Positions 8,386 through 44,951 of a stretch of 64,000 bases of DNA are shown in pieces. The DNA comes from Fibrobacteria bacterium (GTDB lineage Bacteria > Fibrobacterota > Fibrobacteria > UBA5070): the NCBI GenBank assembly GCA_020633825.1, contig JACKCV010000002.1, positions 139,553 to 203,552 on the forward strand, read 5' to 3'. Under the pieces are notes generated by a model that was not told where the DNA came from, did no database searches, and saw only the letters and a program-made list of their open reading frames with translations. Each line of letters starts with the position of its first letter. Position 1 is the first letter of the stretch. The position numbers were made by a program, and so were the translations under genes.

Positions 8386-8542
8386 CGGGAGGGCTCCTTG
8401 GAAGAACGATCGTGGGTTGGTCGGAGCCCAAAGGTACCTCCACCCGGACGATCGATTCCCGAGTTCTTTCCCAGAGGGAAAGCATGATCGGGGCGATTCT
8501 ATAAGGTGGATCTTTTCATCTGTCAATCAAGAAATGCGTGGT

Positions 8543-8557
8543 GCGACAAATTGCCGC
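8543..8557 (+). promoter_or_regulatory. Candidate RegA/PrrA-type box GCGAC-N5-GCCGC (imperfect dyad) in divergent promoter region
   Basis: Sits in the AT-richer 245-nt region between yicC and the Rieske/cyt-b operon; fits the GCGNC-N5-GNCGC pattern recalled for PrrA/RegA sites. Confidence 0.2.
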
Positions 8558-8630
8558 ATTGTTCATCGGGGGCAAGTCAATGATCATTGCTAGCCAACGA
8601 TGACCGCCCAAATCCACGGAAAGGCGACCC

Positions 8631-9791
8631 ATGATTGACCCTCTTCTCCGCATCGGAGGCGCCCTGGTGATGGCCGGGAACATGCCTCCGGCGGATTCGC
8701 TCGCGCTCCCGGCTCCGGTCTGGCTCCTCAAGACCCTGCACGACCTCACCCTCGCCTTGCACTTCGGTGCCCTCCACCTCCTGGTGGGCGGATTGGCCCT
8801 GGTGGTGGTCTGGAACCTGGTCGGTCATCTGCGCAAGGACGAGGCGACCCGCAGGTCTTCCGAAGTGGTCGCCCGGAAACTCCCCGTGGTGACCACCTAC
8901 GTGATCAACCTCGGGGTTCCACCGCTCCTGTTCGCCCAGGTCCTCTACGGCCAGGCGCTCTACACCAGTTCCGTCCTGATGGCCGCCTGGTGGTTTTCCG
9001 CCGTGTTCCTCATCATGGGCGCCTACGCGATCCTGTACCGCATGGCCTACCTGGCCGACAAGGAGCGCCCGTTCTGGTGGTGGGCGATCGCGGCCGCGGC
9101 GGTCCTTTCCTTCGTCGGACGTCTCTTCTCCGGAAACATGACCCTCATGCTGCGCTCCGAGTCCTGGAACGCCCTCTACGCGGCCGATCCCCACGGCATG
9201 TCGCTTCCCGCCGATCCCACCACCTGGCCCCGCCTGATCCTCATGTTCCTTTCCTTCATCGGATTGGGAGCCCTGGGCACGTCCCTGTGGGCCAACATCG
9301 ACAATGCGCGCGGAGTGGCCGCGGCGTTGCGCCGCAAGAGCGCCCTGGTCGCGGTGGTGGTCCTTCCCGCCGTGCTGTTCGCGGGGCTGCGAGCCATGGG
9401 GGTCCAGCCCGTCGGTGTGCAATCCGCGGTCTTGGGATCCCCCCTGGGACATGCGCTTTCGTGGGTCTGGATCGGCTCCATCGCCACCGCCTTCCTGGTC
9501 GCCGCCGCGCTGGCCTGGAAACCCGTCGGTTGGATCTCCTGGTTGGGGACGGTCCCCGCCTTGGGAGCTTTGGCGAGCCTGACCATCGTCCGCGACCTCG
9601 TTCGCGATGCCACGCTCGGTCCGCAAGGTTTGGACGTCTGGGCCTCGGTGGTGCACACCAACTGGACCTTGGTCTGGATCTTCCTCGTGACCCTGGTCCT
9701 GGGGCTCGCCTTCGTGGCCTGGATCGGCGTCGTCATCGGGCGCGCCACACCCGCATCCTCGCTCACTTCCGCGGAGGGATCCCATGTCTGA
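8631..9791 (+). CDS. Polytopic membrane protein (~10 TM, uncharacterised), first gene of Rieske/cyt-b operon
   Basis: Hydrophobic helices throughout; stop overlaps the Rieske start by 8 nt (translational coupling). Confidence 0.6.
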   Translation: MIDPLLRIGGALVMAGNMPPADSLALPAPVWLLKTLHDLTLALHFGALHLLVGGLALVVVWNLVGHLRKDEATRRSSEVVARKLPVVTTYVINLGVPPLLFAQVLYGQALYTSSVLMAAWWFSAVFLIMGAYAILYRMAYLADKERPFWWWAIAAAAVLSFVGRLFSGNMTLMLRSESWNALYAADPHGMSLPADPTTWPRLILMFLSFIGLGALGTSLWANIDNARGVAAALRRKSALVAVVVLPAVLFAGLRAMGVQPVGVQSAVLGSPLGHALSWVWIGSIATAFLVAAALAWKPVGWISWLGTVPALGALASLTIVRDLVRDATLGPQGLDVWASVVHTNWTLVWIFLVTLVLGLAFVAWIGVVIGRATPASSLTSAEGSHV

Positions 9792-10266
9792 GAACCAAAA
9801 CACCTCCGGATCCACGGAACAAGGTGCCTCCTCCGAACGTCGCACCTTCCTGAAGGTCGCGGCTTGCGGCGTGGGTGCCGCTTGGGCGGGGATGGTGGGA
9901 TACCCGATCTACCGCTACATCGCCTCGCCCGTCGAAGAAGCCGCATCCGCCGATGTGGTGACGGAAGTCGAGGTCGAGAAAGGGGCGGAGCTTCCCAAGA
10001 ATGCGGCCTTGATGTTCAAGTTCGGCACCAAGCCGGCGATGCTGATCCACCACGACGACGACACCTGGTCGGCGTTCCTGGCGGTCTGCACCCACCTGGG
10101 ATGCACTCCGGCCTACCAGCCGGAAGAGAAGCGGATCTTCTGTCCCTGCCATTCGGGGGTCTACGACGCCCATTCCGGCGCCAATGTGGCCGGCCCTCCG
10201 CCCAAGCCCCTTCCCCAGTTCAAGGTCGCTGTCGCCGACGGAAAGGTTGTGGTGTCCCGTGCCTGA
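9784..10266 (+). CDS. Rieske [2Fe-2S] iron-sulfur protein with Tat signal
   Basis: 'SERRTFLK' twin-arginine signal; 'CTHLGC' and 'CPCHSG' Rieske boxes. Confidence 0.9.
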   Translation: MSENQNTSGSTEQGASSERRTFLKVAACGVGAAWAGMVGYPIYRYIASPVEEAASADVVTEVEVEKGAELPKNAALMFKFGTKPAMLIHHDDDTWSAFLAVCTHLGCTPAYQPEEKRIFCPCHSGVYDAHSGANVAGPPPKPLPQFKVAVADGKVVVSRA

Positions 10267-11356
10267 GTCCCTCGGTCCGAAAGTCTACTCCTGGCTCGAT
10301 GAGCGCTTGGGATTGTCGCCCATTCTCGAGCTCGCCCTGAAGAAGCGGGTTCCCGACCACAAGCACTCCTTCTGGTACTACTGGGGAGGCATCACGCTGT
10401 TCTTCTTCATCGTGATGTGTTTCACAGGCGTCCTCCTGCTGCTGTATTACCGTCCCGGCGACGGGGCCTACGAATCGGTCCAGCAGATCAACACCCAGAT
10501 CAAGTTCGGATGGCTCATCCGCTCCATCCACTCCTGGTCGGCCAATCTCATGGTGGCGGCCGCATTCGTGCACATGTTCAGCACCTTCTTCATGAAGGCC
10601 TACCGGGCACCGCGCGAATTCCTCTGGTGGTCGGGCTTCGGTCTGCTCAGCCTGGCCATGGTCTTCGGATTCTCGGGGTACCTCCTGCCGATGGACGACC
10701 TCGCCTACTTCGCGACCAAGGTGGGATTGTCCATCCCGGCGGTGATGCCGGTCGTCGGTCCTTGGATCGCCGATCTCGTGCGCGGTGGACCGGACATCAC
10801 GGCCTACACGATTTCCCGCTTCTTCGCCTTGCACGTGGTGATCCTCCCCGCGTTGTTCATTCCCCTGCTGCTTCTCCACCTCGGTCTGGTCCAGCAGCAC
10901 GGCATGTCGATCCCGGAATCGGAGCAGCAGAAGCCCGAAGCCGAGCGCAAGTCCATCCCGTTCTTCCCGAACTTCGTGTTCAAGGACCTCGCCGTCTGGC
11001 TGGTGGCCCTCAATGTCCTGGCCTTGTTGGCCGTGGCCTTCCCTTGGCCTCTGGGACCGGCGGCCGATCCGTTGGCGCCGGCTCCGGCCGACATCCATCC
11101 GGAGTGGTACTTCATGAGTTCCTTCCAGATCCTCAAGGCCTTCGGCGGTTGGTTCCCCGGTGTGGTCGGGGAATTCCTGGGGATCGCCTTCTTCAACGCC
11201 GGTGTCGTGTTGTGGGCCTTGGTGCCCCTGTTCGACCCGAACACGAAATCGGGCCAGTGGGGGCGTCGCGTCACCTGGTTCGGATTCGTCGTCCTCGCCG
11301 TCTTGATCGTGACCACCATTTGGGGCTACGCGGTTCTTCCCGCCGTGGCCCACTGA
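10259..11356 (+). CDS. Cytochrome b (b6-type with fused subunit-IV-like C-terminus)
   Basis: GTG start overlapping the Rieske stop (GTGCCTGA); 'FWYYWGGITLFFF', 'IRSIHSWSANLMVAAAFVHM' heme-ligand helices; 365 aa. Confidence 0.85.
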   Translation: MPESLGPKVYSWLDERLGLSPILELALKKRVPDHKHSFWYYWGGITLFFFIVMCFTGVLLLLYYRPGDGAYESVQQINTQIKFGWLIRSIHSWSANLMVAAAFVHMFSTFFMKAYRAPREFLWWSGFGLLSLAMVFGFSGYLLPMDDLAYFATKVGLSIPAVMPVVGPWIADLVRGGPDITAYTISRFFALHVVILPALFIPLLLLHLGLVQQHGMSIPESEQQKPEAERKSIPFFPNFVFKDLAVWLVALNVLALLAVAFPWPLGPAADPLAPAPADIHPEWYFMSSFQILKAFGGWFPGVVGEFLGIAFFNAGVVLWALVPLFDPNTKSGQWGRRVTWFGFVVLAVLIVTTIWGYAVLPAVAH

Positions 11357-11368
11357 GGAGACGCACCC

Positions 11369-12733
11369 ATGAACTATCCTGCCTGGGACGTACCCTATCT
11401 CGGCTCCGGATGGATGATCGGCATCGTCGCCATCATCCACATCCTGATCTCCCACTTCGCCGTGGGTGGCGGCATCTTCCTTCCCCTGACCGAGGCCAAG
11501 GCGCTTCGCGAAGGCCGCAAGGATTGGATGTTGCGCCTGAAAGGCTACTCCAAGTTCTTCCTCGTGCTCACCGGCGTGTTCGGCGCCATGACGGGCGTGG
11601 GGATCTGGTTCGCCATCGGACTGGCCAGCCCCAACGGCACCAGCGCCCTCATCCACAACTTCGTGTTCGGCTGGGCGATCGAGTGGGTGTTCTTCCTCGT
11701 GGAACTCACCTTGGCGATGGTCTACTACTACACCTGGGACCGCATTCCCGCGAAGCTCCACCTGACCATCGGATGGATCTACGCCGCGGTTTCCTGGGGA
11801 ACCCTGGTGATCATCAACGGCATCCTCACCTTCAAGCTCACTCCCGGGCCGGAGTGGATGGCGTCGGTCGGAACGGGGCGCGAATCCGAGTACTTCTTCG
11901 ACGCGTTCTTCAACGCGGGCTACCTCCCCAGCCTGGGGCTGAGGACGCTCGCCTGCCTTTCCCTGGCGGGAATCTGGTCGCTGTACTTCTTCAGCCGCCT
12001 CGACGGGGAATCCGACGGCAAGACCAAGGCCAGCATGGTGCAGTGGTCCTCGATGTTCCTGATTCCGTCCTTCCTCCTGATGCCCGTGTTCTTCGCCTGG
12101 TACGTCTTCACGATCCCGGCCGACCATCGCGCCCTGCTGGAACTCGGAATCTCCAGCGCTTCCGCCGGGACCTTCACCCACGTCACGCGCATGACCATCC
12201 TTTCGGTGGTGAGTTCCGCGACCATCGCCCTGGCGGTCATGTTCTTCGCCTGGTTCCAGCCCACGGAACTCAAGCGCGGACACGCCCTTTCCATCCTGTT
12301 TTTGGCCCTGCTCGCCACGGGTTCGACGGAAAGCGTCCGCGAATTCCTGCGCAAGCCGTTCGTGGTGAACGGGTACATGTACTCCAACGGCGTGCGCGTG
12401 AACCAGATCGAGGGATTCAATCGCGACGGCTACCTCACGGGATCGGTCTGGTCGCCGGTGTCCCCCGACGCGGCCTTCCACCACAAGTCGGTGGGGGAGA
12501 GGATGTTCCAGGGCCAGTGCATGGCCTGCCACACCCTCGACGGATACCGTCCCATCCGCAAGCTGCTGGCGGGTCGGGACACCACCTCGATCGGAAGCGT
12601 CCTGAAGATGCTCCACGACAACGCCCCGGAGAGCCCCTACCGGAAGTTCATGCCGCCTCTGGTGGGAACCGAGGAGGAGATCCGCGCCCTCCGGGATTGG
12701 CTCGCCGTGCAGGTCGCTCCGGCTTCCCACTGA
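11369..12733 (+). CDS. Integral membrane protein with C-terminal mono-heme c-type cytochrome domain (CxxCH)
   Basis: ~370-aa multi-TM N-domain plus 'FQGQCMACHTLDGYRP'; 12 nt after cyt b. Confidence 0.7.
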   Translation: MNYPAWDVPYLGSGWMIGIVAIIHILISHFAVGGGIFLPLTEAKALREGRKDWMLRLKGYSKFFLVLTGVFGAMTGVGIWFAIGLASPNGTSALIHNFVFGWAIEWVFFLVELTLAMVYYYTWDRIPAKLHLTIGWIYAAVSWGTLVIINGILTFKLTPGPEWMASVGTGRESEYFFDAFFNAGYLPSLGLRTLACLSLAGIWSLYFFSRLDGESDGKTKASMVQWSSMFLIPSFLLMPVFFAWYVFTIPADHRALLELGISSASAGTFTHVTRMTILSVVSSATIALAVMFFAWFQPTELKRGHALSILFLALLATGSTESVREFLRKPFVVNGYMYSNGVRVNQIEGFNRDGYLTGSVWSPVSPDAAFHHKSVGERMFQGQCMACHTLDGYRPIRKLLAGRDTTSIGSVLKMLHDNAPESPYRKFMPPLVGTEEEIRALRDWLAVQVAPASH

Positions 12734-12759
12734 TCCCTTCGCCCCTCCCCCCCACCGCC

Positions 12760-13308
12760 TCATCGCGGAGGGGGGAAGCGGGCGAGCTTGCGCTGCAGGG
12801 ACCGGCGGTCGATTCCCAGTTCGCGGGCCGCACGGGACACGTTCCCGTCGCAGTCGGCCAGTACGCGGTGGATGTGCTCCCATTCCACGCGATCCAGGGA
12901 GGGCGTCTCGATCCGGATCGATTCCTGCTTTCCCTCGAGGACGGCGGCGATCTGGTTCCCGTCCAGGGGTTTGGTGCGGTAGTCCGATGCGCCCGCGCGG
13001 ACGGCTTCCAGCGCCGAGGCGATGCTGCCGTAGCCGGTGAGGACCACGATGGTCGCGTCGGGCAGGATCTGTCGCAAGGCCGTCACCAGGTCGAGACCGT
13101 TCTCCTGGCCCAGGCGCAGGTCGACCAGGACGTGGTCGGGTGCGTTGCGTTGGGCGTTCTGGATGGCCGCGGCCCGGTTCGAGCATGTCCACACCTCGTA
13201 CCCGCGCCGGCGCATGGAAAGCCCCAGTCGTTCCCGATAGGCGTCCTCGTCGTCGACGATCAGGAGCTTCCCGCGGGGGCCTTCCCCCGGTTGGGCCTGG
13301 GAGGTCAC
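12760..13308 (-). CDS. RegA/ActR/PrrA-family response regulator (REC + Fis-type HTH)
   Basis: GTG start overlapping the kinase stop (GTGA); 'KLLIVDDED', 'DLRLGQENGLDL', C-terminal 'SRAARELGIDRRSLQRKL'; 182 aa. Confidence 0.85.
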   Translation of the reverse strand: MTSQAQPGEGPRGKLLIVDDEDAYRERLGLSMRRRGYEVWTCSNRAAAIQNAQRNAPDHVLVDLRLGQENGLDLVTALRQILPDATIVVLTGYGSIASALEAVRAGASDYRTKPLDGNQIAAVLEGKQESIRIETPSLDRVEWEHIHRVLADCDGNVSRAARELGIDRRSLQRKLARFPPPR

Positions 13309-14585
13309 GACCCCATCTCCGCGTCGGGCACCCGCAGTTCCGCCGTGGTTCCTTCCCCTGGGCGGGAGGTCACCTTCAAGGTTCCTCCGCAACGATCCGC
13401 GAACGTCCGCACCAGGAAAAGCCCCAGACCCATCCCCTTCCCGGGGCCCTTGGTCGACAGGAACGGCTCGCCCAGGCGCGGGAGCAGATCCGGAGGGATC
13501 CCTTCCCCCCTGTCGCGCACGGTGAAGACCGAGTCGTTGGCTTCCCGCCGAAACGACATGTCCACGACTCGACCCTCCGGAGACGCCTCCACGGCGTTCT
13601 TCACCAAGGTGACCAGGGATTGGATCAGAGGGGCTTCCGGAAGCACCATCTGGACATCCCTTTCCAGACGAGGCGGAACCAGGCGGGCGGAAAGCGAGGG
13701 ATGGAGTGCTTCGGAGAGGGCGGCGAGGATCTGGGAGAGGGACGTGCGGACGGGGCCGTCCCCGATTCCCGAAGTGGTGTGGCTGCCCAGGCGATCCAGG
13801 ATGCGTCGGCACCGGTCCACCTCCGATCGGATCAACAAGGCATCGTCGCGCCACTGGTCGGAAGGGGTGTCCGCAGGGAGGGAGGCGAGGTCCGCCGAGG
13901 CCACGGCGATGGTTCCCAACGGGGATGCCAGTTCGTGGGCCACTCCCGCCGCCAACGTGGCCAGGGATGCGAATTGGCGATCTCGCAGGGCCCGATGGCG
14001 CCATTCGCCGAGATCGCGTTCCTGAGATTCGAGGGCATGGCGGAGGTTGGCGACGAAGTAGGCGATGGAAGTTCCGACCAGGGCCAGCGCGGCCAGGTTT
14101 CCGATTCGCTCCAGACGGGGAGCGATGGGCCATGGGGGGGAGGTGGTCTGCACGAGGGCTCCGGCCACCACCAGCAGCAGGAAGAACCACATGTGGGAGC
14201 GGGGAACCAGGACGGCGGCCATCGCCAGGTGGAGAAGGAAGAACAGGGTGAACGGATTGGTGGTGCCCCCCGTGAACCACAGCATTCCCGTGAGGACCAG
14301 GGTGTCGATCCCGAGCAGGCCCGAGATCCAGGACCCCGCATGGATCCCTTCCCGTCGGGAGCGATGGTGCAGGAACATGTTGCTCAGCAAGGTGAAGCCG
14401 AGGAATCCCGACAGGGGGAGCCAGGGAAGATGGATGCCATCCAATTGCGAGGCGAAGGCGCAGGTGCTGGCCTGTCCCGCGAGGGCGGCCCACCGGAGGC
14501 GGAGCAGCCACCGCAAGCCGGGGTGGGCGTTCTCGGCGTTCGTGCCGCCGGGAAAACCGCCGAGGTTCTTCAGTCGGTTCGGCAT
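13305..14585 (-). CDS. RegB/PrrB-family redox-sensing histidine kinase
   Basis: 6-TM N-domain with 'GGTTNPF' (GGxxNPF quinone-site motif); H-box 'AGVAHELASPLGTI'; G-box 'GMGLGLFLVRTF'. Confidence 0.8.
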   Translation of the reverse strand: MPNRLKNLGGFPGGTNAENAHPGLRWLLRLRWAALAGQASTCAFASQLDGIHLPWLPLSGFLGFTLLSNMFLHHRSRREGIHAGSWISGLLGIDTLVLTGMLWFTGGTTNPFTLFFLLHLAMAAVLVPRSHMWFFLLLVVAGALVQTTSPPWPIAPRLERIGNLAALALVGTSIAYFVANLRHALESQERDLGEWRHRALRDRQFASLATLAAGVAHELASPLGTIAVASADLASLPADTPSDQWRDDALLIRSEVDRCRRILDRLGSHTTSGIGDGPVRTSLSQILAALSEALHPSLSARLVPPRLERDVQMVLPEAPLIQSLVTLVKNAVEASPEGRVVDMSFRREANDSVFTVRDRGEGIPPDLLPRLGEPFLSTKGPGKGMGLGLFLVRTFADRCGGTLKVTSRPGEGTTAELRVPDAEMGS

Positions 14586-14670: not shown

Positions 14671-15024
14671 TCAGAGGAGGTTGCAGGCCTGCCTGCCGTC
14701 CTGCAGGGTCGGATAGATGGGGATGATGCTCCCGAGGCTCGCGACCTGGAAGACCTCGAGGATGTCCGAGCGGTTTTCCACGAGGAACATCTGCGAGGAT
14801 TTCTTGCGGAACCCCAGGGCGTAATCGATGATCCCCGCCAGGCAACAGCTTCCGAGCAGTTCCAGACCCGTGGTGTCCATGGCCAGGGGCAGGGGTGGTT
14901 CCATCGACATCAAATCGGAGAGGACGGCCCGGAATTGCGCGAGTTGAGGCATCGCGAAATCGGTTCCCTCCAGATGGAGCACCCGGAGATTCGGGAGCGT
15001 TTCAACAGTGAAGAGACAGCCCAT
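14671..15024 (-). CDS. STAS domain protein (anti-sigma-factor antagonist-like)
   Basis: 117-aa SpoIIAA-like pattern, immediately upstream and co-directional with the RegB-like kinase. Confidence 0.45.
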   Translation of the reverse strand: MGCLFTVETLPNLRVLHLEGTDFAMPQLAQFRAVLSDLMSMEPPLPLAMDTTGLELLGSCCLAGIIDYALGFRKKSSQMFLVENRSDILEVFQVASLGSIIPIYPTLQDGRQACNLL

Positions 15025-15098: not shown

Positions 15099-16883
15099 TC
15101 AGGCCAACAGCCCGATCTTGCGGATGGACTCGATGGCGACATCCCTCCGCTCCCCGGTGGACAGGAGGATCGCTTCCAAGGTGGCCGGTTCCCGGCGACG
15201 GTCGACACGAAGCGGGCGCAGCCGCATGGCCCTGCCCGGCGGTGTTTTGAGCACGACCTCGATCTCGTTCTCGGTGAGTGCCGCGTATTCCGCCAATTTC
15301 ATGCAATCGGCGTAATCGAGTTCCCGCAAACCGGTGCCGGCGTAGCGCGAGCTAGATCCGGGGATGGTGCGCGAGACCATCTCCCCGTTGGGCCAGGACC
15401 ATCGATGCTCGCGCAGTTCGGGTTCCGGGGCGGGGGATTTCCACGGGTGGACCGGTGCGCTGCTGGGGTCTTCGGGAGGGAAGTACCCCAGGCTCGAAAG
15501 CAGCCTGCGGATGGTGGGTTCCTGGGTCGGATCGATCAGGAAGCCCCAGTCCGGGATGGTTTCGAGAGTGAGCGAGAGGAACGCGTCGAGCGCGCAGAGT
15601 TGGCGGTGGCGCAGCGGGTCGGCGATGCGCAGGAGCCTGGCGGATTCGAACCTGCACGCGCGACGGGTGGCGAGCCATTCCTCGAGTTGGACGAGGACCG
15701 CGGCCGGAGGCGCCAGATCCTCGAGCAGGGTCGGAATGCGTCCGGCCCAGGATTCGAGGGCGGCGGCGGCCAGCACCTTGTCCCGATCGAGCTTCCATCG
15801 GGAGACCAGGTCGGCGGACTCGCGTTTCCCGAGGAAGGACGCGTCCCGATGATGCCCGAGGGGGGACTGCGGGGCCAGGAAGATCTGCAGATCGGACGTG
15901 CACCACCAGGTGCGTTCCGCTCGTGGATGGATGGAATCGATCCACGGCCACACGAAGACCAGGTCTCCCTGGGCGCACTCCCGTTCGAGGATGCCGACCA
16001 CCAGGGCTTCCCGCAGGAGTCGGGGAAGTTGGGTCCAGCTCCGGCCGGTGGGCCCGGGAACCAGCAGGCCTTCCCGGCGGAAGAACAGGCGTGCGGCGAA
16101 GTCGGCGTCGGCCCCGTCGGGAAGATTGGTGGCGATCCAGTCCTTGATGCCGCCGGTTCGCCGCTCGCGCGACTCCCACCAGCGCAGAGCGAAGTCCGGG
16201 CGATCGTCCAGGGAGGCGAGCCAGGTCGGCAGGTCCGGGGAGGATTCCAGGGCCCCATCCCTTCGCAGCAGGAGACCCTGGTCGGAGAGGAAGTCGAGAG
16301 CCAGGTCGAGGGCCATTTCCTGCGCCCCTTCGCCGAGGTCGGACAGGTGCGAAAAAATTTCGCGCAGAGTCGGTCTGTCGCGACGATTCAGGGAACCGTC
16401 GCGGTTCAGTCGAGCTCCCCCGAGGTCGATGGCGGCGGAGAGCGATGCGATCGATTCGAGGAAGGCGCGCGAGGCGTGGCGTTGTCCCTGGGGCCTCTCG
16501 CGGGGGGGGATGTCGAAGGTCTGCGCGGCGGCCACGACGGTGGGGGTGAGGTCGATCACGGGGTGCCAGGTCGGCGGCTCCTCGCGATCCAGGATGATGA
16601 CAAATTCCGACGCAAGGGTCTCGAGATCCTGCCTGTCCTCGGGAGCGAAGGCCTCGCAGGGGATTCCGCCCTCGCCGGCGAGATGGATGTCGAGCGCGAT
16701 GGCGGCGGTGGACGGGGAGTCGCGCAGGAGCGGTTCGATCCTCTCGCCGGAAACCATCCAGGCCTCGATCTCCAGGTTGATCCTGCTGCGTTGCACCAGG
16801 CCTTCTCTGCCGAGGCGATGGGCGTGGAGGGAAGCGATTTCTCCCTGGGGAACCTGATCGAGAAGCTGACGTACAGATGGCAT
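15099..16883 (-). CDS. Hypothetical protein (594 aa)
   Basis: Minus-strand frame has balanced L/E/D/A composition; the overlapping plus ORF is G/R/P-rich. No recognisable motif. Confidence 0.4.
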   Translation of the reverse strand: MPSVRQLLDQVPQGEIASLHAHRLGREGLVQRSRINLEIEAWMVSGERIEPLLRDSPSTAAIALDIHLAGEGGIPCEAFAPEDRQDLETLASEFVIILDREEPPTWHPVIDLTPTVVAAAQTFDIPPRERPQGQRHASRAFLESIASLSAAIDLGGARLNRDGSLNRRDRPTLREIFSHLSDLGEGAQEMALDLALDFLSDQGLLLRRDGALESSPDLPTWLASLDDRPDFALRWWESRERRTGGIKDWIATNLPDGADADFAARLFFRREGLLVPGPTGRSWTQLPRLLREALVVGILERECAQGDLVFVWPWIDSIHPRAERTWWCTSDLQIFLAPQSPLGHHRDASFLGKRESADLVSRWKLDRDKVLAAAALESWAGRIPTLLEDLAPPAAVLVQLEEWLATRRACRFESARLLRIADPLRHRQLCALDAFLSLTLETIPDWGFLIDPTQEPTIRRLLSSLGYFPPEDPSSAPVHPWKSPAPEPELREHRWSWPNGEMVSRTIPGSSSRYAGTGLRELDYADCMKLAEYAALTENEIEVVLKTPPGRAMRLRPLRVDRRREPATLEAILLSTGERRDVAIESIRKIGLLA

Positions 16884-20770: not shown

Positions 20771-21595
20771 CTACCTCAGAAGACTCATGACGCCTTGCGG
20801 GAGCTGGTTGGCCTGGGCCAGCATGCTCTGGGCGGAATTGGTCAGGATCTGGTTGCGAGTGAACTTCGTGGTTTCCGTGGCGAAGTCCGTGTCGCGGATC
20901 CGACTTTCGGCGTCCGTCATGTTCGTGATCGAAACACCAAGGTTCGAGACGGTCTTTTCGAGCCGGTTCATCGCCGCACCCACATCGGAGCGCATGGAAA
21001 GAACGGACGTGAGAGCCGTATCGATGCTGTTGATCGCCGACTGCGCCGCCGACTGCGTACTGACCGCGCCGAGGCTGAGATCGCCGGCAAGGTTGGTCGC
21101 AAGGGAGAAGCTGATGGTCGAAGAACTGGCCGCGTTGCCCGACGAACCGGCGGCGGACACCTGGAAGGAGAAGGTCGACGTGGTCGACAGCAGATCCACA
21201 CCGTTGTAGGTGGTGGACTGTGCGATCCGCGTGATTTCCGACTTCAGTGCCGTGAATTCCGCCTGGATGTAGGAGCGGTCGGTATTGGTGTAGGTTCCGT
21301 TGGAGGATTGGATCGCCAGCTCGCGCATGCGTTGCAGGGAGTTGGTGATTTCCTGGGTCCCGGATTCCGCGATCTGGAGCATGGCCAGGGAGTCGTTCGA
21401 ATTTCGCTGGGCCGTCTGGCTGCCGCGGATCTGCGAACGCAGGCCCTCGGAGACGGAAAGACCGGCGGCATCGTCGGCGGCTCTGTTGATGCGAAGGCCC
21501 GTGGAAAGCTTCTCCAGGGACTTCGACATGGCCATGTTCGTCGTCGCGAGCGAATTCTGGGCATTCGTCGCGTTGACGTTGTTGTAGATGCGCAT
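20771..21595 (-). CDS. fliC: Flagellin (274 aa)
   Basis: N-terminus 'MRIYNNVNATNAQNSL...LSTGLRINRAADDAAGLSVSEGLRSQI'; C-terminus 'LAQANQLPQGVMSLLR'; GGAGG RBS. Confidence 0.92.
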   Translation of the reverse strand: MRIYNNVNATNAQNSLATTNMAMSKSLEKLSTGLRINRAADDAAGLSVSEGLRSQIRGSQTAQRNSNDSLAMLQIAESGTQEITNSLQRMRELAIQSSNGTYTNTDRSYIQAEFTALKSEITRIAQSTTYNGVDLLSTTSTFSFQVSAAGSSGNAASSSTISFSLATNLAGDLSLGAVSTQSAAQSAINSIDTALTSVLSMRSDVGAAMNRLEKTVSNLGVSITNMTDAESRIRDTDFATETTKFTRNQILTNSAQSMLAQANQLPQGVMSLLR

Positions 21596-21700
21596 GATGC
21601 ACCTCCATGTGGTCGTTCAAGACAGGACAGCGTCCTTGCCGTCCATCCCGGATCCCTCCGGACGCCCGCCTCGCGGTTGGAGACCGGAGTTCCCCTCATA

Positions 21701-21730
21701 CTTATCGGATGAATCATTCTTGCGTTTTAG
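21701..21730 (-). promoter_or_regulatory. Sigma-28 (FliA)-like promoter TAAAACGC-N12-TCCGATAA upstream of flagellin 1
   Basis: Minus-strand reading 'CTAAAACGCAAGAATGATTCATCCGATAAG', ~105-135 nt upstream of the ATG. Confidence 0.5.
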
Positions 21731-21836
21731 CCTTTATTCATCGGCATTCGCGAGTCGGCTAGACAGAAAACGACAAAGACCGCGCAGCCCGAAGGCGGCG
21801 CGGTCCCGAGTGCCTGGAAGGCTCTTCAGGGGGTCA

Positions 21837-22661
21837 TCAACGCAGCAGGCTCATGACGCCCTGCGGGAGCTGGTTGGCCTGGGACAACATGCTCTGCGCG
21901 GAGTTGGTCAAGATCTGATTGCGGGTGAACTTCGTGCTCTCCATCGCGAAGTCGGTGTCGCGGATGCGGCTTTCCGCGTCGGTCATGTTGGTGATGGCCA
22001 CGCCGAGGTTCGAGACGGTCTTCTCCAGGCGGTTCATGGCGGCACCCACGTCCGACCGCATCGAAAGCACCGAGGTCAGGGCCGTGTCGATGCTGGTGAT
22101 GGCCGTCTGCGCCGCCGACTGGGTGCTGACCGCACCGAGGGAGAGGTCTCCCGCGAGATTGGTTGCCAGGGAGAAGCTGATCGTCGAGGAGCTCGCCGAG
22201 GCTCCGGCGGATCCGGCCGCGGAGACCTGGAAGGAGAAGGTCGAGGTGGTGGAGAGCAGATCGACGTTATTGTAGGTCGTGCTCTGGGCGATGCGGGTGA
22301 TTTCCGACTTCAAGGCCGTGTATTCGGCCTGGATGTAGGAACGGTCCGTGTTGGTGTAGGTGCCGTTGGAGGACTGGATGGCCAATTCCCGCATGCGCTG
22401 CAGGGAGTTGGTGATCTCCTGGGTTCCGGATTCCGCGATCTGGAGCATGGCGAGAGCGTCGTTGGAATTCCGCTGGGCCGTCTGGCTGCCGCGGATCTGC
22501 GAACGCAGACCTTCGGAGACCGACAGACCGGCGGCATCGTCGGCGGCTCTGTTGATGCGTAGACCGGTGGAAAGCTTCTCCAGGGACTTCGACATGGCCA
22601 CGTTGGCGGTGGCGAGCGAGTTCTGGGTTCCAATGGCGTTGACGTTGTTGTAAATGCGCAT
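21837..22661 (-). CDS. fliC: Flagellin (274 aa; ~95% identical to copy 1)
   Basis: 'MRIYNNVNAIGTQNSL...'; start picked inside ORF 21837..23042; GGAGG RBS. Confidence 0.92.
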   Translation of the reverse strand: MRIYNNVNAIGTQNSLATANVAMSKSLEKLSTGLRINRAADDAAGLSVSEGLRSQIRGSQTAQRNSNDALAMLQIAESGTQEITNSLQRMRELAIQSSNGTYTNTDRSYIQAEYTALKSEITRIAQSTTYNNVDLLSTTSTFSFQVSAAGSAGASASSSTISFSLATNLAGDLSLGAVSTQSAAQTAITSIDTALTSVLSMRSDVGAAMNRLEKTVSNLGVAITNMTDAESRIRDTDFAMESTKFTRNQILTNSAQSMLSQANQLPQGVMSLLR

Positions 22662-22783
22662 GATGTCCAACCTCCGTGTCGGGCGTATGCAGGTGACGAC
22701 GCTTCCGGGAGAGGCTCCCGGAAGTTCCCTTCTTCGGTGGTTTCCTCCATCCTTGGAGGTCCCTTCCGACTCTTCTTCCATTC

Positions 22784-22810
22784 TTTCGGCGATTTGGCGG
22801 CGCGACTTGA
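22784..22810 (-). promoter_or_regulatory. Weak sigma-28-like promoter TCAAGTCG-N12-GCCGAAAG upstream of flagellin 2
   Basis: Minus-strand reading of 'ctttcggcgatttggcggcgcgacttga'; partial match to consensus. Confidence 0.3.
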
Positions 22811-23076
22811 GGGTTTTTTGGCGATCCAGGGGGGAAGGACGGAGCGATGCCGCCTCCCTGCGGTCCTGGGGAGGGAGGCGTCTCCGCGCCGCCGAGGAGG
22901 GGCAACCGCGCCGCGGAGGCGTCTTCGGGGGAATGCGTAGCTCCCGACCGATCGGTCGATCCCGGGGGGGGGCGGGGCGTTCGGCCAGAAAGGCCAAAGC
23001 CCGCCCCGGTAGATCCGGGACGGGCTCGAGGGATCTCCCCAAGGGAGGAGGGAGGAGAGGGGAGACCCCGTTTCGA

Positions 23077-23883
23077 TCACTTCAAGAGGGACATCACGTT
23101 GTTGGGCAGCTGGTTGGCCTGGGCCAGCATGCTGGTGGCCGACTGGTTGAGAATCTGGTTGCGCGTGAACTGGGTGGACTCGGTGGCGAAGTCCGTGTCG
23201 CGGATGCGGCTTTCCGCGTCGGCGTAGTTGGTGATCATCACGCCCAGGTTGTTCACCGTCTTCTCCAGCCGATTCATGGTGGAGCCGATGGTGGAGCGCA
23301 GCGACAGCACCGAGGTCAGGGCCGTGTCGATGGTGGAGATCGCGGCTTGGGCCAGGCTCTGGCCGGAAACCGCACCCAGGGTGAGTCCGGTCAGGTCCAC
23401 GGCGGTGAAGGAGATGGTCGAGGAGTTCCCCGATCCGGCCGAGGAGACCTGGAAGGAGAACGGAGTGGAACCGGCCAGCAACTGCACGTCGTTGTAGGTG
23501 ACGGACTGCGCGATGCGGGTGATTTCGGAGGCGAGCGCGTCGTATTCGGCCTGGATGTACTGGCGCTCGTGGTTGGTGTAGGTTCCGTTGGCCGATTGGA
23601 TGGCCAGTTCCCGCATGCGCTGCAGGGAGTTGGTGATCTCCTGCGTTCCACCTTCGGCGATCTGCAGCATCGCCAGCGCATCGTTGGAGTTGCGGCGGGC
23701 CATGTCGGAGCCGCGGATCTGCGAACGCAGCCCTTCGGACACGGACAGGCCGGCGGCGTCGTCGGCGGCGCGGTTGATGCGAAGTCCGGTGGACAACTTC
23801 TCCAGGCTCTTGGACATCAGGCGGTTGGATGTCATCAGCGAGTTCTGGGTGTTGATGGAGTCGACGTTGTTATAGATGCGCAT
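23077..23883 (-). CDS. fliC: Flagellin (268 aa; diverged third copy)
   Basis: 'MRIYNNVDSINTQNSLMTSNRLMSKSLEKLSTGLRINRAADDAAGL...NNVMSLLK'; start picked inside ORF 23077..23991. Confidence 0.9.
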   Translation of the reverse strand: MRIYNNVDSINTQNSLMTSNRLMSKSLEKLSTGLRINRAADDAAGLSVSEGLRSQIRGSDMARRNSNDALAMLQIAEGGTQEITNSLQRMRELAIQSANGTYTNHERQYIQAEYDALASEITRIAQSVTYNDVQLLAGSTPFSFQVSSAGSGNSSTISFTAVDLTGLTLGAVSGQSLAQAAISTIDTALTSVLSLRSTIGSTMNRLEKTVNNLGVMITNYADAESRIRDTDFATESTQFTRNQILNQSATSMLAQANQLPNNVMSLLK

Positions 23884-24047
23884 GGGGAAACCTCCCTGTT
23901 TTGGAGCTTGCGGGCCGGCCCGCACGGCTTCCCTGCCGCGACGAGATCCGGAAGAAGCGGTTCGCGGTTCCGGCGCTTTGGGTGTTTCCACCCGCGCGAA
24001 CCTGCTTCCTGGATTGGTTGTTGGTTTGCCGGAAATTCATGGTGCGC

Positions 24048-25145
24048 CTACATCACGACCAGTTCGGCCTGGAGGGCGCCGGACTTCTGGATGGCCTCGA
24101 GGATCGCGATCAAGTCGCGGGGCGAGGCTCCCAGGGTGTTGAGGGCGCGGGCGAGTTCGCCCACGTTGGTGGAGGCGGGGAGGACGCGGACCTGGTCCTG
24201 GCGTTCCTCCGTCTGGATGGAAGGGGTGGCGGTGGTCCGGGTCGTGCCGGCCGCGAAGGCGTTGGGTTGGCTGGTCTGGTAGCCCGGGTCGACCTTGATG
24301 GTCAAGGATCCGTGGGTGACGGCGACCTCGTCGATGAGGACGTCCGATCCGGCGACGATGGTGCCGGTGCGTTCGTTGACCACGATCCGGGCGGGCCGGT
24401 CCATCTCCACCCGGAGGTTTTCCAGCTTGGCGATCAGGGAGGCCCGGCCTTCCTTGGGTTCCTTGCCCGTGAACCGGACGCTCGCCGCATCTTCCGCGAT
24501 CGCGCTCCCCTTGCCGAAGGCGGTTTCGATGGAGGTGGCCAATGCGGAGGCGACCGTGAAGTCCGGGCTGCGCAGCGAAAGTCGGAGCGGTCCGTCGTCG
24601 AGACGGACGGCGAGGTTCTCCCGTTGGACGATGGCGCCGGCGGGGATGACGCCCGTGGCGGATTGTCCTTGCGAGATGCTGGCTCCGGCGAGTCCCCTCT
24701 CGATCCCGCCCGCGGTGCCCAGCGGACCTTGGGCGACGGCGTAGAGTTCGCCATCCGGCCCCTTGAGCGGAGCCATCAGGAGGACGCCGCCGGTGAGGGA
24801 GCGTGCGTCGCCCATGGAGGAGACGTGGACGTCCACGCGCCCACCGGGTTTGGCGAAGGGAGGAAGGTCGGCCGTCACCAGGACCGCCGCGACATTGCGA
24901 AGCCGGATCTGGTTGCGGTCCACTTCCAGGCCCATGTTGCGCAAGAGGTTCAAGGTGGAGCGCTGGGTCACTCCCGATCCGGGGCCGTCCCCCGTACCGG
25001 CCAGTCCGACGACGAGTCCGTAGCCGAGGAGAGGCGTGCGGGAGACGCCCTGGACATCGGCCATGTCCTTGACCCTGACCTGCTGGCTCTGGACGGAAAC
25101 CGTCAGCAGCAGCACGGCGAACGGGATGTGGAACGCGGCGCGCAT
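24048..25145 (-). CDS. flgI: Flagellar P-ring protein FlgI
   Basis: Signal peptide then 'VKDMADVQGVSRTPLLGYGLVVGLAGTGD'; 365 aa; ATG overlaps the flgH stop (TGATG). Confidence 0.9.
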   Translation of the reverse strand: MRAAFHIPFAVLLLTVSVQSQQVRVKDMADVQGVSRTPLLGYGLVVGLAGTGDGPGSGVTQRSTLNLLRNMGLEVDRNQIRLRNVAAVLVTADLPPFAKPGGRVDVHVSSMGDARSLTGGVLLMAPLKGPDGELYAVAQGPLGTAGGIERGLAGASISQGQSATGVIPAGAIVQRENLAVRLDDGPLRLSLRSPDFTVASALATSIETAFGKGSAIAEDAASVRFTGKEPKEGRASLIAKLENLRVEMDRPARIVVNERTGTIVAGSDVLIDEVAVTHGSLTIKVDPGYQTSQPNAFAAGTTRTTATPSIQTEERQDQVRVLPASTNVGELARALNTLGASPRDLIAILEAIQKSGALQAELVVM

Positions 25146-25717
25146 CAGAAGATCCAGTCCAGGAAGCGGGCGATCGGCCCCTTGCGCGCGGCCTCGGAGT
25201 CGGCGCCCCGTCCCGAGTAGGTCACCTTGGCGTCGGCCAGACGGCCGGATCTCACGGTGTTTTCGGCGGAGATGTCCTCGGGGCGCAGCAATCCGGCGAC
25301 GGTGAGGATCTCGGTCTCGTCGTTGATCACGACCTGCTTGGTCCCTTCGACCCGGAGGGTTCCGTTGGGAAGGACTTCGATCACCCTCGCGCTGACCACG
25401 GCCTGCATGCTGCCTGCGCGGGAGGTGTTTCCAAGCCCCTTGAAATCGGCGTCCAGGGCGGACTTGGCGGAGGCGTCGGGGAGGAATCCCAGGATCCCGG
25501 ATCCCGCCTGCATTCCCACCGATCCCTTGGAGCTGCTCTGGGTGTTGGTCTGGGCGGCGTTGCGGGCGGTGTTGTCCTCCTCGACGAGGACCGTGACCAC
25601 GTCGTCCACGCGCCGGCTGCGGTGGTCGCTGGTGAGCGAGAAGTCGGAAGGAAGCCTCTCCGCCGCCGAAGCGACGGAAAGTGTCATGAGCGCTGCGATC
25701 GCGGATGGGATCTTCAT
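25145..25717 (-). CDS. flgH: Flagellar L-ring protein FlgH
   Basis: 190 aa with signal peptide; 'VTVLVEEDNTARNAAQTNTQ...' and position upstream of flgI. Confidence 0.8.
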   Translation of the reverse strand: MKIPSAIAALMTLSVASAAERLPSDFSLTSDHRSRRVDDVVTVLVEEDNTARNAAQTNTQSSSKGSVGMQAGSGILGFLPDASAKSALDADFKGLGNTSRAGSMQAVVSARVIEVLPNGTLRVEGTKQVVINDETEILTVAGLLRPEDISAENTVRSGRLADAKVTYSGRGADSEAARKGPIARFLDWIF

Positions 25718-26232
25718 CGTCTCGGCTCTCCGTCGAAGGGGTGGAAGGTTTCCGTTCGACGAGACTCCTAATCCAAAGTCGTGCCAATCCTCAGAATGGA
25801 GGTCTGGAGGGCGATTTTCCGCCGGGGGTGGACAGGTTTGCCTCCCCGGCGGAAGGCGGGGGAGCGGTTTCTGCCCACCGATGGGCGGCGATCCATCCCT
25901 CGGGGTACCGATCGTGCGGGGGAAACGAAACAGGCCTCCCCGGGAACGGGAAGGCCTGCCGAAATGGGACGAGGAGGGTCAGACTGGATGGCGGTTGCAT
26001 TCCCCGATTGCTTATATCCCCGCTGCCAGAGCCTGTCTGACCTACGACCAGCCGGAGTAAACTCCAGAGGGTCCTCCTCTGTAGGAAAAAGTATCACAAG
26101 CATCTGCTGTTGGCTAGACCCAAACGAACTCCGGAATGTGGGCTTCGCCAGGAGCGAGGGATCGAGGGGGCGTGCCCGGTCCGGTCTTCTGCTTGGGCCG
26201 CCCGCGGGATGCCAGCCTGGGAAAGCAAAAAG

Positions 26233-38591: not shown

Positions 38592-38933
38592 GCTTTTCTT
38601 ATGCTTTTCTTAAGTGGGTGGCGGCATACATTATAAACATCATACCGCCAGTTCCCTGCGGGTGGGCGGGTCGGTTCTCCAAAAGAATCGGCCCGCCTTT
38701 TTTTTGCGGAAATTCGACGCTGGTTGTGCTTCGTTCACGGTTTGAGCACAGATTCGTCGTCTGATTCCACTTCGATCCGGGAAACACCCTGCCAGTCCAA
38801 GGACTCGGGTGTAAACTGTCACGGATTGTAGCTGGATCCAGTGAGATCGCTCCCTCTGGTTCCAGGTCCTGGCGGGCCTCTCACACCGTCTGAAAATGGC
38901 CCCAAGGTTTGGTTTCGAACGCTCGAGGTTTTC

Positions 38934-44900: not shown

Positions 44901-44951
44901 GCCGAGAAGGAGATCACCAACACGATCTACACCTTCGGATGGGCTCCTTGA
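38934..44951 (+). CDS. Giant secreted protein (~2005 aa) with fibro-slime/PA14-like domain and five ~207-aa tandem repeats
   Basis: Signal 'MTRIRGLGLLLGIAMVLGIPSSSMA'; 'FRFRGDDDVWVFIDKKLAMDIGGQHG...YQFDMFYCERHELGSSILIQTTM' matches the fibro-slime (TIGR02148-like) signature. Confidence 0.8.
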   Translation: MTRIRGLGLLLGIAMVLGIPSSSMAGKTLMFLMDEYIISNTDSVAGTPQVWIQHYDSAAANVGYYYGAKDLFLTQTDAYAKPIPVHSAEPDSIPYPRQLERWWYSLPDFNSAQFREGKVRLTMQYMMVMHRWLNGNPSRMQIDTQSNRGNSTTSELNTPTSREIDNCIDTLHGDTIWIRHTASDNDSVGTISNNPSAASMRCYDHNPFFKKVGTVHVLNPWPGKTVWAQVGTEWYPLYAEPGRAGWVTASLWQDPRTAAPFVVRFANGDPRVSSAVTYMDAGGLAGNASGIGLDFTANAGKSVWVIPPTGALPAPTVSTVQPAKKLTLMIHRPAWNASAVRVMWKGMDARFIASSTEYCDWFSMDFYEGAVPEQIVLRQPFVDSLFGQNGLAAAPALMSNFTDWITVNPVLAASGTLWLETDGNRATFLGTAPATATICNEKILAFSAWDFSKIYNPYKPFTEGLGYKTDNCPTSGGKETKGLVLPTLNSKGVPTWSGKVDCNIGNTLDGPQYWFDTLVRGGVPMNSFTCVPLPLTLDATGYYKYSNPTFFPLDTFTTLRDGTPNRFNDKEYNSRNNNFGFCMHAKASFEYVPGLQFRFRGDDDVWVFIDKKLAMDIGGQHGPVDGDIKLDNLGLSEGKSYQFDMFYCERHELGSSILIQTTMNLVPTIDVEFDSSGAKPGVYDYISWIKETTNRADICPELGAATATNKRRGPAIYTLVSPDLTEITLDSLVATQYPGLVITDLNSHIAIDTAALKKSGRLVTSGLYQIRINVGSEERIVPFTISSDAVQVFGVLLDRNGDGQPDSVVLKTDDQAASFRVPVSATLRWADRSGVPDSVSVPSTNLHKYPGDSTLTGGFLLPSRTSCPPAGCTGNMGAVYTANGGDTVYNPIVELRDGMAPVADSAWLIYDSTGLGKDTLFVIASEALVATMKAALPVGDSAFVLTGRSIAARPVPGTAILVGNLLKLPIDPATNPIQPGDSIRLGGWSGDVFANSPRELSRWVPLYANPVAKSWMLDVDGNGAPDSVGIMVRGTLRSATAAKIHWKTAAGVDTVIQMTTPTGIGTGLRLPPDILANATLCTGCFMEVTMGGVDQRIVLLDSVPAVALSAKLRYGVSKDTLLVEVSEPFAIGNAPGEGTVAVKAAGSASIPGTLVAGQATAGPRWLTLVVDTGAVQADSVRLRAWILGNLNVPVGAVSPYVPLVYGPQPISVALFDRNGDGKADWVRFHMVRSATGAPNPAGFAVSWAGAVARAASLPKSADGRTWSGPIGPLPFGTACDAGCLGWVTTIAGDSLSFRSAVEDSVPPVAVSARLGYGLAGDPDTLDVTASEPLLAGAAGAWVETGTNRSLVHGTLVATPSSSSVQGKRMVLLVPSGTVSDGDSLLRLGARMGDSGRAFVGDTSAWVPLASSVKGVALLLDSDQDGAPDSIQFDVRGRLAAGSARIGWSEDASGKADVVVPSGMAGSWGGPLVKALPVGATSCQVSAGCTVTLADGTVLPLLDGVPPVATKARYRFGANANDPDTLIVDGSETLQLQAAGNAWLDWGIPGTRREPVPSLQAGLVNSNPRSIVALVRLPEGVEITATHAGFAVAPQLQGFADLLGNQPGTFSPMVPIEFGPPPMIGVLADRNGDGYPEGVRFTILRKTPAPPAADSFTVRWNDEKGTPLTRRIAASSLTWDGSTSWVGDLATPFPYGATSCLGSCGGAALDPAGASLPLRTLIDSIPPVPVQASYRYSLPEEARDTLRVVLSEPWANPDPNNSRLTDAIVALGGAGNSNPLTSALSWSLAEDGKTLIFVLDPMKTVVGAKDSVRLVGLPTARVHDAASNAPGAVAPWFPIDFGLRPPWLYVGPWPGFIKRPADEVWSTYPAGTPPLTVEWRPVKGSSSNPVPAGDWKLLAGSGPDSSRSLGLLLNLNRPVDGHLYIYDNIGIHVTDISLDMIAKAWADGGSPDASRQVVIRWKGIDKTGALSSPGVYLWRLILWQIPDDPHAEKEITNTIYTFGWAP
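41300..44400 (+). repeat. Five diverged protein-level tandem repeats (~620 nt each) inside the giant gene
   Basis: Each unit has a 'D(R/V/S)(N/D)GDGxPD' motif and '(D/E)S(V/I)PPVAVSARLxYG...DTLxVxxSEP'. Anchors at ~41322, 41985, 42580, 43192, 43812. Confidence 0.6.

Follow-up and report, generated by a model that had tools for sequence, protein, structure and literature searches.

A conserved gene cassette joining a Rieske/cytochrome b module to a cytochrome bd-like pair: a candidate hard-wired menaquinol oxidase in Fibrobacteria and other bacterial phyla

A stretch of 64,000 nt from a Fibrobacteria bacterium (hereafter the window; coordinates are positions within it unless another locus is named) carries an operon at 8631–12733 on the + strand whose most likely product is a "complex III plus terminal oxidase" in hard-wired form. 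Its four genes, named g1 to g4 in order, encode a membrane protein with a cytochrome bd-type fold and without a family model (g1, 8631–9791, 386 aa), a Rieske iron-sulfur protein (g2, 9784–10266, 160 aa), a cytochrome b (g3, 10259–11356, 365 aa from this start) and a CydA-like protein with a predicted heme c domain (g4, 11369–12733, 454 aa). Homologues of each of the four number in the hundreds to thousands. It is very probable that the four proteins form one complex. The full statement, in which the Rieske/cytochrome b part of this complex is wired to a bd-like reductase that reduces O2, is held with less assurance, and we consider it somewhat better supported than its negation. An earlier note on this DNA had described four co-directional open reading frames (ORFs) at this position and strand, and this layout stands.

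The placement of the operon among the bd-type enzymes depends on g4. Residues 15–202 match the CydA family (PF01654, 8.9e-12), covering only profile positions 4–190 of 418, and a profile of 42 g4 homologues retrieves the Geobacillus CydA from the PDB sequences (5doq_A, 3.4e-7). The AlphaFold2 (AF2) model, with a predicted local distance difference test score (pLDDT) of 83.7, shows eight long transmembrane (TM) helices (residues 14–326) followed by an alpha-helical domain which contains the motif CMACH, and its top Foldseek matches in the PDB are all CydA chains with a probability of 1.00. Alignment to E. coli CydA by hhalign pairs H24 with H19, E105 with E99, E112 with E107 and H131 with H126, while HMMER pairs His24 with Geobacillus His21, and all four residues are invariant in 42 g4 sequences across phyla. 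His24 is part of the TM1 motif IIHILISH (11432–11455) and is the putative equivalent of the axial ligand of the di-heme O2 site. Likewise, Glu105 and Glu112 in the TM3 motif IEWVFFLVE (11678–11704) are candidates for the glutamates of the proton channel and heme site, with a spacing one residue shorter than in E. coli, which is the qOR3/OR-C type. The end of TM8 (TESVREFLRKPF, 12326–12361) adds the residues E321, R324, E325, R328, K329 and P330, invariant in the same 42 sequences. Here, Glu325 in the invariant ExxRKP[F/Y] may correspond to E. coli Glu445 in ExxRxP[W/F], the second active-site heme ligand, the alignments to CydA in this region being weak (HMMER domain 2, 5 bits; hhalign E 0.084).

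The C-terminal part of g4 (approximately residues 344–454) is predicted to be a mono-heme cytochrome c domain from the AF2 model and its heme c site CMACH (C384, C387, H388; 12518–12532), which is invariant in the 42 sequences and constitutes the sole CxxCH across the six frames of 8400–12800. PF13442 matches residues 376–445 weakly, and Met428 in the invariant FMPP (12647–12658) is the probable distal ligand of this heme. Because g4 is N-out with eight TM helices, the domain is placed in the periplasm. The elements of a quinol site were assessed by alignment and model inspection, TM5–TM7 being a region that does not align with CydA in sequence. Comparison of the invariant positions with the helix boundaries of the model found no invariant His or Met in TM5–TM7, including no invariant His at the b558-ligand position in the fifth TM helix, and on inspection of the model the loop between TM6 and TM7 is short (residues 248–270) and lacks a Q-loop. 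A canonical quinol-oxidising CydA was thus set aside as an identity for g4, which has neither a Q-loop nor b558 ligands and is not accompanied by a CydB (PF02322) partner. The NCBI entry identical to g4 bears the name [quoted passage not shown] which is misleading because the NCBIfam CydA model PRK15097 gives g4 9.1 bits, its cut-off being 968, and because electrons are expected to enter from the Rieske protein through heme c. Taken together, g4 is predicted to be the catalytic "a-type" subunit, of the OR-C1a type, of a cytochrome bd-like enzyme.

The partner subunit g1 was identified by fold comparison, sequence routes having left it without a name. Neither Pfam nor NCBIfam gave a family match to the window g1 at E ≤ 1, the CydB model (PF02322) included; Pfam over 42 aligned members returned scattered singleton matches only, the g1 profile found no match among the PDB sequences, and hhalign comparisons with E. 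coli CydA and CydB were not significant. Its homologues bear the name "hypothetical" throughout, and the family comprises 1649 representative clusters at E ≤ 1e-3. The protein has nine predicted TM helices with the N-terminus outside and the C-terminus in the cytoplasm, and an alternative start at ATG 8670 corresponds to a 373-aa product on record (P0121). Profile–profile comparison with the g4 family aligned the two C-terminal halves weakly but specifically (E 5e-4), pairing NMTLMLRPE with ILTFMLTPG, DPTxxPR with NPTYWPS and RDGIRD with REMLRK. The channel glutamates are absent from g1, and "b-type" partner subunits are described as lacking them (Murali, Gennis and Hemp, 2021; bioRxiv 10.1101/2021.01.16.426971). 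It contains no cysteine and therefore no heme c. A candidate heme axial ligand is His44 in the TM1 motif LHFG (8757–8768), which is invariant in 42 homologues, is retained in distant fused relatives and is probably the counterpart of CydA His19 and g4 His24; the best local profile alignment places H44 on H24. The most conserved stretch of the family is a signature at the periplasmic end of TM2 (NLGVPPLLFAQVLYG, 8907–8951), in which N93, G95, P97, P98, L99, L100, F101, Q103, L105, Y106 and G107 are invariant across the 42 homologues. On its modelled fold, g1 is assigned as the second, CydB/CydA'-like "b-type" subunit of a bd-like heterodimer with g4.

These results refine what the earlier note had said of the two bracketing proteins. 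Their lengths of 386 and 454 aa and the mono-heme C-terminus of g4 are retained, while the ten TM helices claimed for g1 become nine and the membrane domain of g4, put at about 370 aa, becomes one of about 330 aa with eight TM helices, to which a cytochrome c domain of some 120 aa is joined. Both proteins had been called unknown, which holds for g1 as regards Pfam and NCBIfam models and fails for g4, which is matched by PF01654 and already named by NCBI.

The Rieske and cytochrome b identities proposed for g2 and g3 were confirmed by Pfam. In g2, PF00355 matches with 5.5e-13 and TIGR01416 with 1.1e-20, the latter below its cut-off. The protein carries a twin-arginine signal or anchor (RRTFLK, residues 19–24, 9838–9855; twin-arginine translocation signal domain) and contains box I CTHLGC (residues 102–107, 10087–10104) and box II CPCHSGVY (10141–10164, with CPCH at residues 120–123). 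Box II is found in all 70 complete cassettes from the wider comparison described below and the strict form of box I in 62 of them, the other eight having CTHLAC or CTHMAC. Throughout the family box II is of the "GY" type, with C.CHGG.Y in most of the 70 cassettes. This type has been linked to a potential of 120–160 mV (Baymann et al.; PMC3509893), and by this rule the cassette Rieske protein is predicted to be of the low-potential "GY" type. Three Pfam models match g3 above their cut-offs (PF13631, 6.5e-45; PF00033, 4.2e-41; PF00032, 2.3e-9), while all NCBIfam scores stay below the family cut-offs, including the best one, for cytochrome b6 (204 bits). Its architecture is that of a fused b6 plus subunit IV. 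The heme ligands H91/H105 (10529–10573) are separated by 13 residues and H192/H207 (10832–10879) by 14, and the Qo motif PEWY occupies residues 281–284 (11099–11110); both His spacings and PEWY are kept in 70 of 70 cassettes. The same holds for a Trp which in WYYWGG (10373–10390) stands at the heme-ci position instead of Cys.

The four genes belong together far beyond this genome. A pattern scan for the signature stretch of g1, with one genome per species, found relatives in no fewer than 575 species genomes, spread over more than 10 phyla. Carriers belong to the Fibrobacterota, FCPU426, Acidobacteriota, Verrucomicrobiota, Hydrogenedentota, Armatimonadota, Chlorobiota (Chloroherpetonaceae, Thermochlorobacter), Planctomycetota, Nitrospiraceae and Omnitrophota. 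Among 83 loci compared, the order g1, Rieske, cytochrome b, g4 on one strand is present at all 74 with room for it, the other nine being cut by contig ends, so that the synteny check suggested in the earlier note came out in favor of an obligate gene order. Pairwise distance matrices of the four proteins correlate with r of 0.69–0.87, and none of 500 permutations reached the observed value. Exactly one CxxCH is present in the g4 protein of 68 of the 70 complete cassettes, and none in g1. Conversely, no neighbour family is common to the loci across phyla, and the flanks differ, for example, in Fontisphaera persica and the Bryobacteraceae. The hosts include aerobes and microaerophiles such as Chthonomonas, Fimbriimonas, Chloracidobacterium, Terracidiphilus and Fontisphaera. 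Cultivated carriers include Fontisphaera persica and Chloracidobacterium thermophilum; those found here in Chthonomonas and Fimbriimonas are metagenome-assembled genomes only, the cultured members of both genera and Bryocella being further candidates.

The gene junctions are equally tight. In the window, the stop codon of g1 (TGA, 9789–9791) lies within g2, whose ATG is at 9784 (ATGTCTGA), giving an overlap of 8 nt. A second overlap of 8 nt is formed with the g2 stop codon (TGA, 10264–10266) if g3 starts at GTG 10259 (GTGCCTGA), which is in frame and is the presumed start. The mechanical ORF begins at ATG 10184 and would make the overlap larger, so that both starts overlap g2. Between the g3 stop (11354–11356) and the g4 ATG at 11369 lies a gap of 12 nt with GAGGAG, a predicted ribosome-binding site. 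The overlaps at 9784/9791 and 10259/10266 had been noted before and are confirmed by reading the sequence, the latter with the GTG start, and the translational coupling drawn from them agrees with the tight spacing kept elsewhere: in the 70 complete cassettes g1 and g2 overlap in 51, g2 and g3 lie within 30 nt of each other in 58, and the gap between g3 and g4 has a median of 19.5 nt. The three operon ORFs kept by a coding scan have a GC content at third codon positions (GC3) of 0.86–0.89. A promoter scan found no sigma-70-like promoter, and the seven terminator-like matches of a terminator scan, all inside the operon coding regions or upstream of g1, were given no weight. In some cassettes of Acidobacteriaceae and Verrucomicrobia, an insert of about 0.5 kb separates cytochrome b from g4 (8694–9155 in locus L028, with similar inserts of 480–660 bp in L030, L039, L064 and L083). 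By eye, the 153-aa product of the L028 insert presumably belongs to a "four-helix bundle / 23S rRNA intervening-sequence" family.

Variant loci indicate how the parts relate to each other. In two independent metagenome contigs (L088, 2472–5506; L089, 217–2290), g1 and the Rieske protein form a single ORF (P0262 and P0265, respectively), in frame and 554 and 556 aa long, with a g4-like gene immediately after. A cytoplasmic end of g1 is compatible with a following Rieske anchor, as in this fusion. No cytochrome b was found between the fusion and the g4-like gene or within the few kb recovered of either contig. At three further loci (L085, L086 and L087), a g4-like gene directly precedes a g1-like gene in the absence of Rieske and cytochrome b genes, and one such pair was called as a single 807-aa ORF, probably due to a frameshift. 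Because of these variants, the bd-like pair is regarded as the core and Rieske/cytochrome b as the dedicated electron-input module of the cassette.

The g1-like proteins of a Vicinamibacteria subclade have an extension, either a Tll0287-like heme c domain or CusF plus SCO1. The latter form (L086, 279–2234, P0359; also P0453, P0466 and P0481) runs from the g1-like part through a lipoprotein-like signal into CusF and SCO1/SenC copper-chaperone domains, and in L086 the gene before this ORF has a g4-like heme c domain at its end. The extension hints at either a copper requirement or read-through of an adjacent chaperone gene. The former (L087, 1526–3208, P0308, with about 60 relatives) has a C-terminal Tll0287-like/DUF3365 domain with CLTCH and is annotated as "DUF3365 domain-containing protein" only; a homology search seeded with P0308 returned only Vicinamibacteria and Acidobacteria proteins named DUF3365 or hypothetical. 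Such proteins may be the heme-c-bearing OR-C1b of Murali et al. (2021).

In the proposed mechanism, menaquinol would be oxidised at a Qo site formed by PEWY of cytochrome b and the Rieske cluster. One electron would enter a Q-cycle, reaching the Qi site via hemes bL and bH, and the other would pass from the Rieske cluster, of the low-potential type, to the lone heme c of the periplasmic g4 domain, which would stand in both for cytochrome c1 or f and for heme b558 plus the quinol site of canonical bd. From there, electrons would reach a heme site in the TM1–4 bundle of g4 (His24, Glu105 and possibly Glu325), where O2 would be reduced to water with protons taken from the cytoplasm via the Glu105/Glu112 channel. 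The assembled enzyme would be a menaquinol:O2 oxidoreductase that operates without a soluble carrier and conserves energy through the Q-cycle and a bd-type charge separation.

Several points weigh against this picture. In the table of Murali et al. (2021), OR-C1a has no equivalent of Glu445, and the match of Glu325 is statistically weak, and since this equivalence is doubtful, the g4 site might hold one heme instead of a di-heme center. O2 reduction is extrapolated by analogy with canonical bd oxidases, the OR-C family having no purified or assayed member, and because OR-C enzymes are also found in strict anaerobes (Desulfovibrio), the substrate need not be respiratory O2. The equivalence of g1 His44 and g4 His24 is not significant by sequence (E 0.12). 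Furthermore, the two fusion contigs, with no cytochrome b in the few kb recovered, suggest that the bd-like enzyme may make use of the Rieske protein in a manner independent of a Qo site, unless a cytochrome b is encoded elsewhere.

Some of these points would suit a complex of the same composition with other chemistry, in which g1/g4 acts on NO, H2O2, nitrite or another oxidant, or scavenges O2 for protection, while the Rieske/cytochrome b part feeds in electrons from the quinone pool. Canonical bd oxidases handle NO and H2O2, OR-C enzymes are abundant in strict anaerobes and carry up to eight hemes c in Desulfovibrio, and in about ten Acidobacteriaceae loci an apparently Rrf2-type regulator with a Cys cluster is encoded divergently upstream; the lack of a Glu445 equivalent for OR-C1a in the Murali table points the same way. 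We nevertheless regard other chemistry as unlikely: the proton-channel glutamates and the His ligand typical of an O2-reducing site are invariant, most hosts are aerobes or microaerophiles, heterotrophic or phototrophic, and no nitrogen-oxide or peroxide genes recur beside the cassette.

The missing b558 ligands and Q-loop of g4 could also mean that the operon encodes an ordinary bc-type quinol:cytochrome c reductase with g4 as a membrane-anchored substitute for cytochrome c1, its bd-like helices and g1 being heme-free relics and electrons leaving heme c to soluble carriers or a separate oxidase. The operon contains no other c1/f-like gene, and the heme c of g4 must therefore fill that role. 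However, conservation in g4 is highest in the membrane domain (57–75% identity across phyla), and the invariance of H24, E105, E112, H131, Y119–121 and E321–P330 is unexpected for a passive anchor. The g1 protein in turn keeps its invariant TM1 His along with many invariant polar and aromatic residues, and since stand-alone g4-like/g1-like pairs exist without Rieske and cytochrome b, the pair has an independent function, which makes a plain reductase improbable. Less probable still is a role of g1 as an accessory factor, be it a heme or copper transporter or an assembly protein, despite its lack of a sequence-detectable family and the distant g1-like proteins which are fused to or read into CusF plus SCO1/SenC or a Tll0287-like heme c domain. 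Against such a role stand the bd fold of g1, its homology to the C-terminal half of g4 and its co-evolution with g4 and cytochrome b (r 0.81–0.87), as well as its position as the first gene, translationally coupled to the Rieske gene in 51 of 70 cassettes and fused to it in two contigs. The reading of the cassette as a Rieske/cytochrome b module wired to a bd-like oxidase is thus preferred.

If true, many abundant but poorly understood soil and freshwater bacteria carry a four-gene route from menaquinol to O2 that dispenses with soluble cytochrome c and heme-copper oxidase. Since at least 575 species genomes carry it, among them members of phyla that dominate in soil and freshwater (Acidobacteriota, Verrucomicrobiota, Armatimonadota, Hydrogenedentota, Fibrobacterota and aerobic Chlorobiota), a major route of (micro)aerobic respiration would have been overlooked. 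The Rieske–g1 fusions, with no cytochrome b in the few kb recovered, would, in addition, represent a Rieske protein as an intrinsic electron-input subunit of a bd-type enzyme, for which we know of no precedent. The proposal bears on the scoring of aerobic metabolism in metagenomes, where g4 appears as "ubiquinol oxidase subunit I," g1 as "hypothetical" and Rieske/cytochrome b are counted as an ordinary complex III, and likewise on the evolution of bd-type oxidases and Rieske/cytochrome b complexes and on the function of the OR-C and OR-N bd-like enzymes. Since cultivated carriers exist, it is directly testable.

Regulatory genes flank the cassette in some lineages. Convergent to the operon in the window lies a redox two-component system of the RegB/RegA type (ActS/ActR- and PrrB/PrrA-like; 12760–14585, − strand), with the kinase at 13305–14585 (−) and the regulator at approximately 12760–13311 (−). 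The best NCBIfam matches of the pair are below cut-off, the regulator included (NF033792, 3.4e-57, 194 against 350; NF033791, 1.1e-49, 169 against 250). The kinase contains GGTTNPF (14250–14270), which we take to be the GGXXNPF quinone-site motif of RegB. Of the loci compared, only this one and that of the closest relative (L004) have the pair beside the cassette. The system probably does not belong to the enzyme and is possibly a lineage-specific regulator of the operon. A different regulator, divergently encoded about 80 bp upstream of g1 and ending in a C-terminal Cys cluster, is found only in the roughly ten Acidobacteriaceae/Terracidiphilus loci (for example, L055, 5213–5902, −); by eye, we assume it to be Rrf2-like, of the IscR/NsrR class.

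Further along the window, a 594-aa ORF at 15099–16883 (−) whose coding signal is good (GC3 0.81) has no Pfam or NCBIfam match and lies downstream of a STAS-domain anti-sigma-factor antagonist-like gene (14671–15024). The region 20771–25787 (−) contains three tandem flagellin genes (274, 401 and 304 aa) beside a FlgI P-ring gene. In the FlgI ORF, the FlgI domain is preceded by about 237 additional N-terminal residues, which may be due to an over-long call. Two very long ORFs with coding-like composition are found at 38841–44951 (+, 2036 aa) and 58188–62261 (+, 1357 aa).

Among known systems, the closest to the bd-like pair is OR-C1, which consists of OR-C1a and OR-C1b and was defined bioinformatically (Murali et al., 2021). 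Like OR-C1a, g4 combines CydA homology in TM1–4 with eight TM helices, a C-terminal heme c site and the lack of b558 ligands and a quinol site, and its residues H24, E105, E112, H131, Y119 and Y121 bear the same numbers as in the OR-C1a reference row of Murali Supplementary Table 6. The OR-C1a list of these authors includes Chloracidobacterium thermophilum (Cabther_A0912), Bryocella and Granulicella, all from groups that bear the cassette. In the OR-C1 operon as described, however, the bd-like genes are adjacent, whereas here Rieske and cytochrome b separate g1 from g4. OR-C1b is described with eight TM helices and one or two hemes c, while g1 has nine, no Cys and no CydA likeness detectable by sequence; more distant g1-like genes, some of which include a heme c domain, do stand immediately behind g4-like genes. 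The donor of OR-C1 was inferred by Murali et al. to be a soluble cytochrome c, in contrast to the co-encoded Rieske/cytochrome b module proposed here.

The operon context is shared with OR-N1 and OR-N5a/b, in which bd-like subunits without a quinol site occur as pairs of a-type and b-type and are encoded with petA, petB and petD. Examples are the Nitrospira cluster of CIII_1 with bd-like_1/2, Rubrobacter and Chloroflexi, where electrons are predicted to come from quinol via the bc-type module, and a complex III–IV supercomplex has been proposed for Nitrospira from co-expression (PMC6606698). By their descriptions, OR-N subunits differ in that they span the membrane with 10 or 14 TM helices and have no heme c fused to them; cytochromes c are encoded separately nearby, and some of the subunits keep the b558 His. 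In contrast, g4 has eight helices and a fused mono-heme c in a compact four-gene cassette. The conserved residues of g4 match the OR-C1a row of Supplementary Table 6 and not the OR-N rows.

With canonical CydAB(X), represented by E. coli bd-I and the bd oxidase of Geobacillus thermodenitrificans, g1 and g4 have the fold of both subunits in common, and g4 shares the equivalents of His19, Glu99, Glu107 and His126. From this we infer the same pseudo-symmetric two-subunit architecture. Unlike canonical bd, g4 lacks the Q-loop and the equivalents of His186 and Met393, g1 is not matched by the CydB model, and electrons would enter through a Rieske-fed heme c. An obligate assembly in which a covalently fused heme c domain, and no soluble cytochrome c, bridges the Rieske/cytochrome b module and the O2-reducing module is familiar from the actinobacterial bcc-aa3 supercomplex and the caa3 oxidases. 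There, the oxidase is a proton-pumping heme-copper enzyme and the bridging heme c resides in QcrC of the bc part or in subunit II; in the complex proposed here, the oxidase would be a bd-like enzyme whose own catalytic subunit carries the heme c.

The Rieske/cytochrome b half resembles cytochrome b6f and the Bacillus-type menaquinol:cytochrome c reductases of the "green clade" in the 14-residue His spacing of helix D, PEWY, the seven-helix b6 plus subunit IV organization (fused here) and the low-potential "GY" Rieske protein. In contrast to b6f, Trp replaces the heme-ci Cys and no gene for cytochrome f, c1 or a di-heme cytochrome c is present in the cassette. The earlier statement that the gene set departs from that of a standard bc1 or b6f is supported, as there is no separate cytochrome c1/f gene: in place of the c1, f or di-heme c subunit through which electrons leave bc-type complexes, the c-type heme is carried by the bd-like g4. 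Alternative complex III was also considered, and its NrfD-like ActC/ActF with ActA/ActB/ActE-type subunits do not correspond to the proteins encoded here.

The literature, in coverage that leaves out most subscription journals, contained no description of an OR-C/Rieske/cytochrome b cassette, of the bd fold of g1 or of the Rieske-fused variants. The suggestion of an undescribed quinol:acceptor module therefore stands in part: a self-contained oxidoreductase is plausible, while the novelty is narrower, since the g4 family is catalogued and bd-like genes together with Rieske/cytochrome b have been published for OR-N. The OR-C/Rieske/cytochrome b cassette and the identity of g1 are apparently undescribed. 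Put together, the comparison tentatively suggests, at somewhat less than even probability, an undescribed hard-wired "bc-bd" menaquinol oxidase in which a heme-c-tagged bd-like subunit replaces cytochrome c1 and the cryptic g1 may bind an additional heme.

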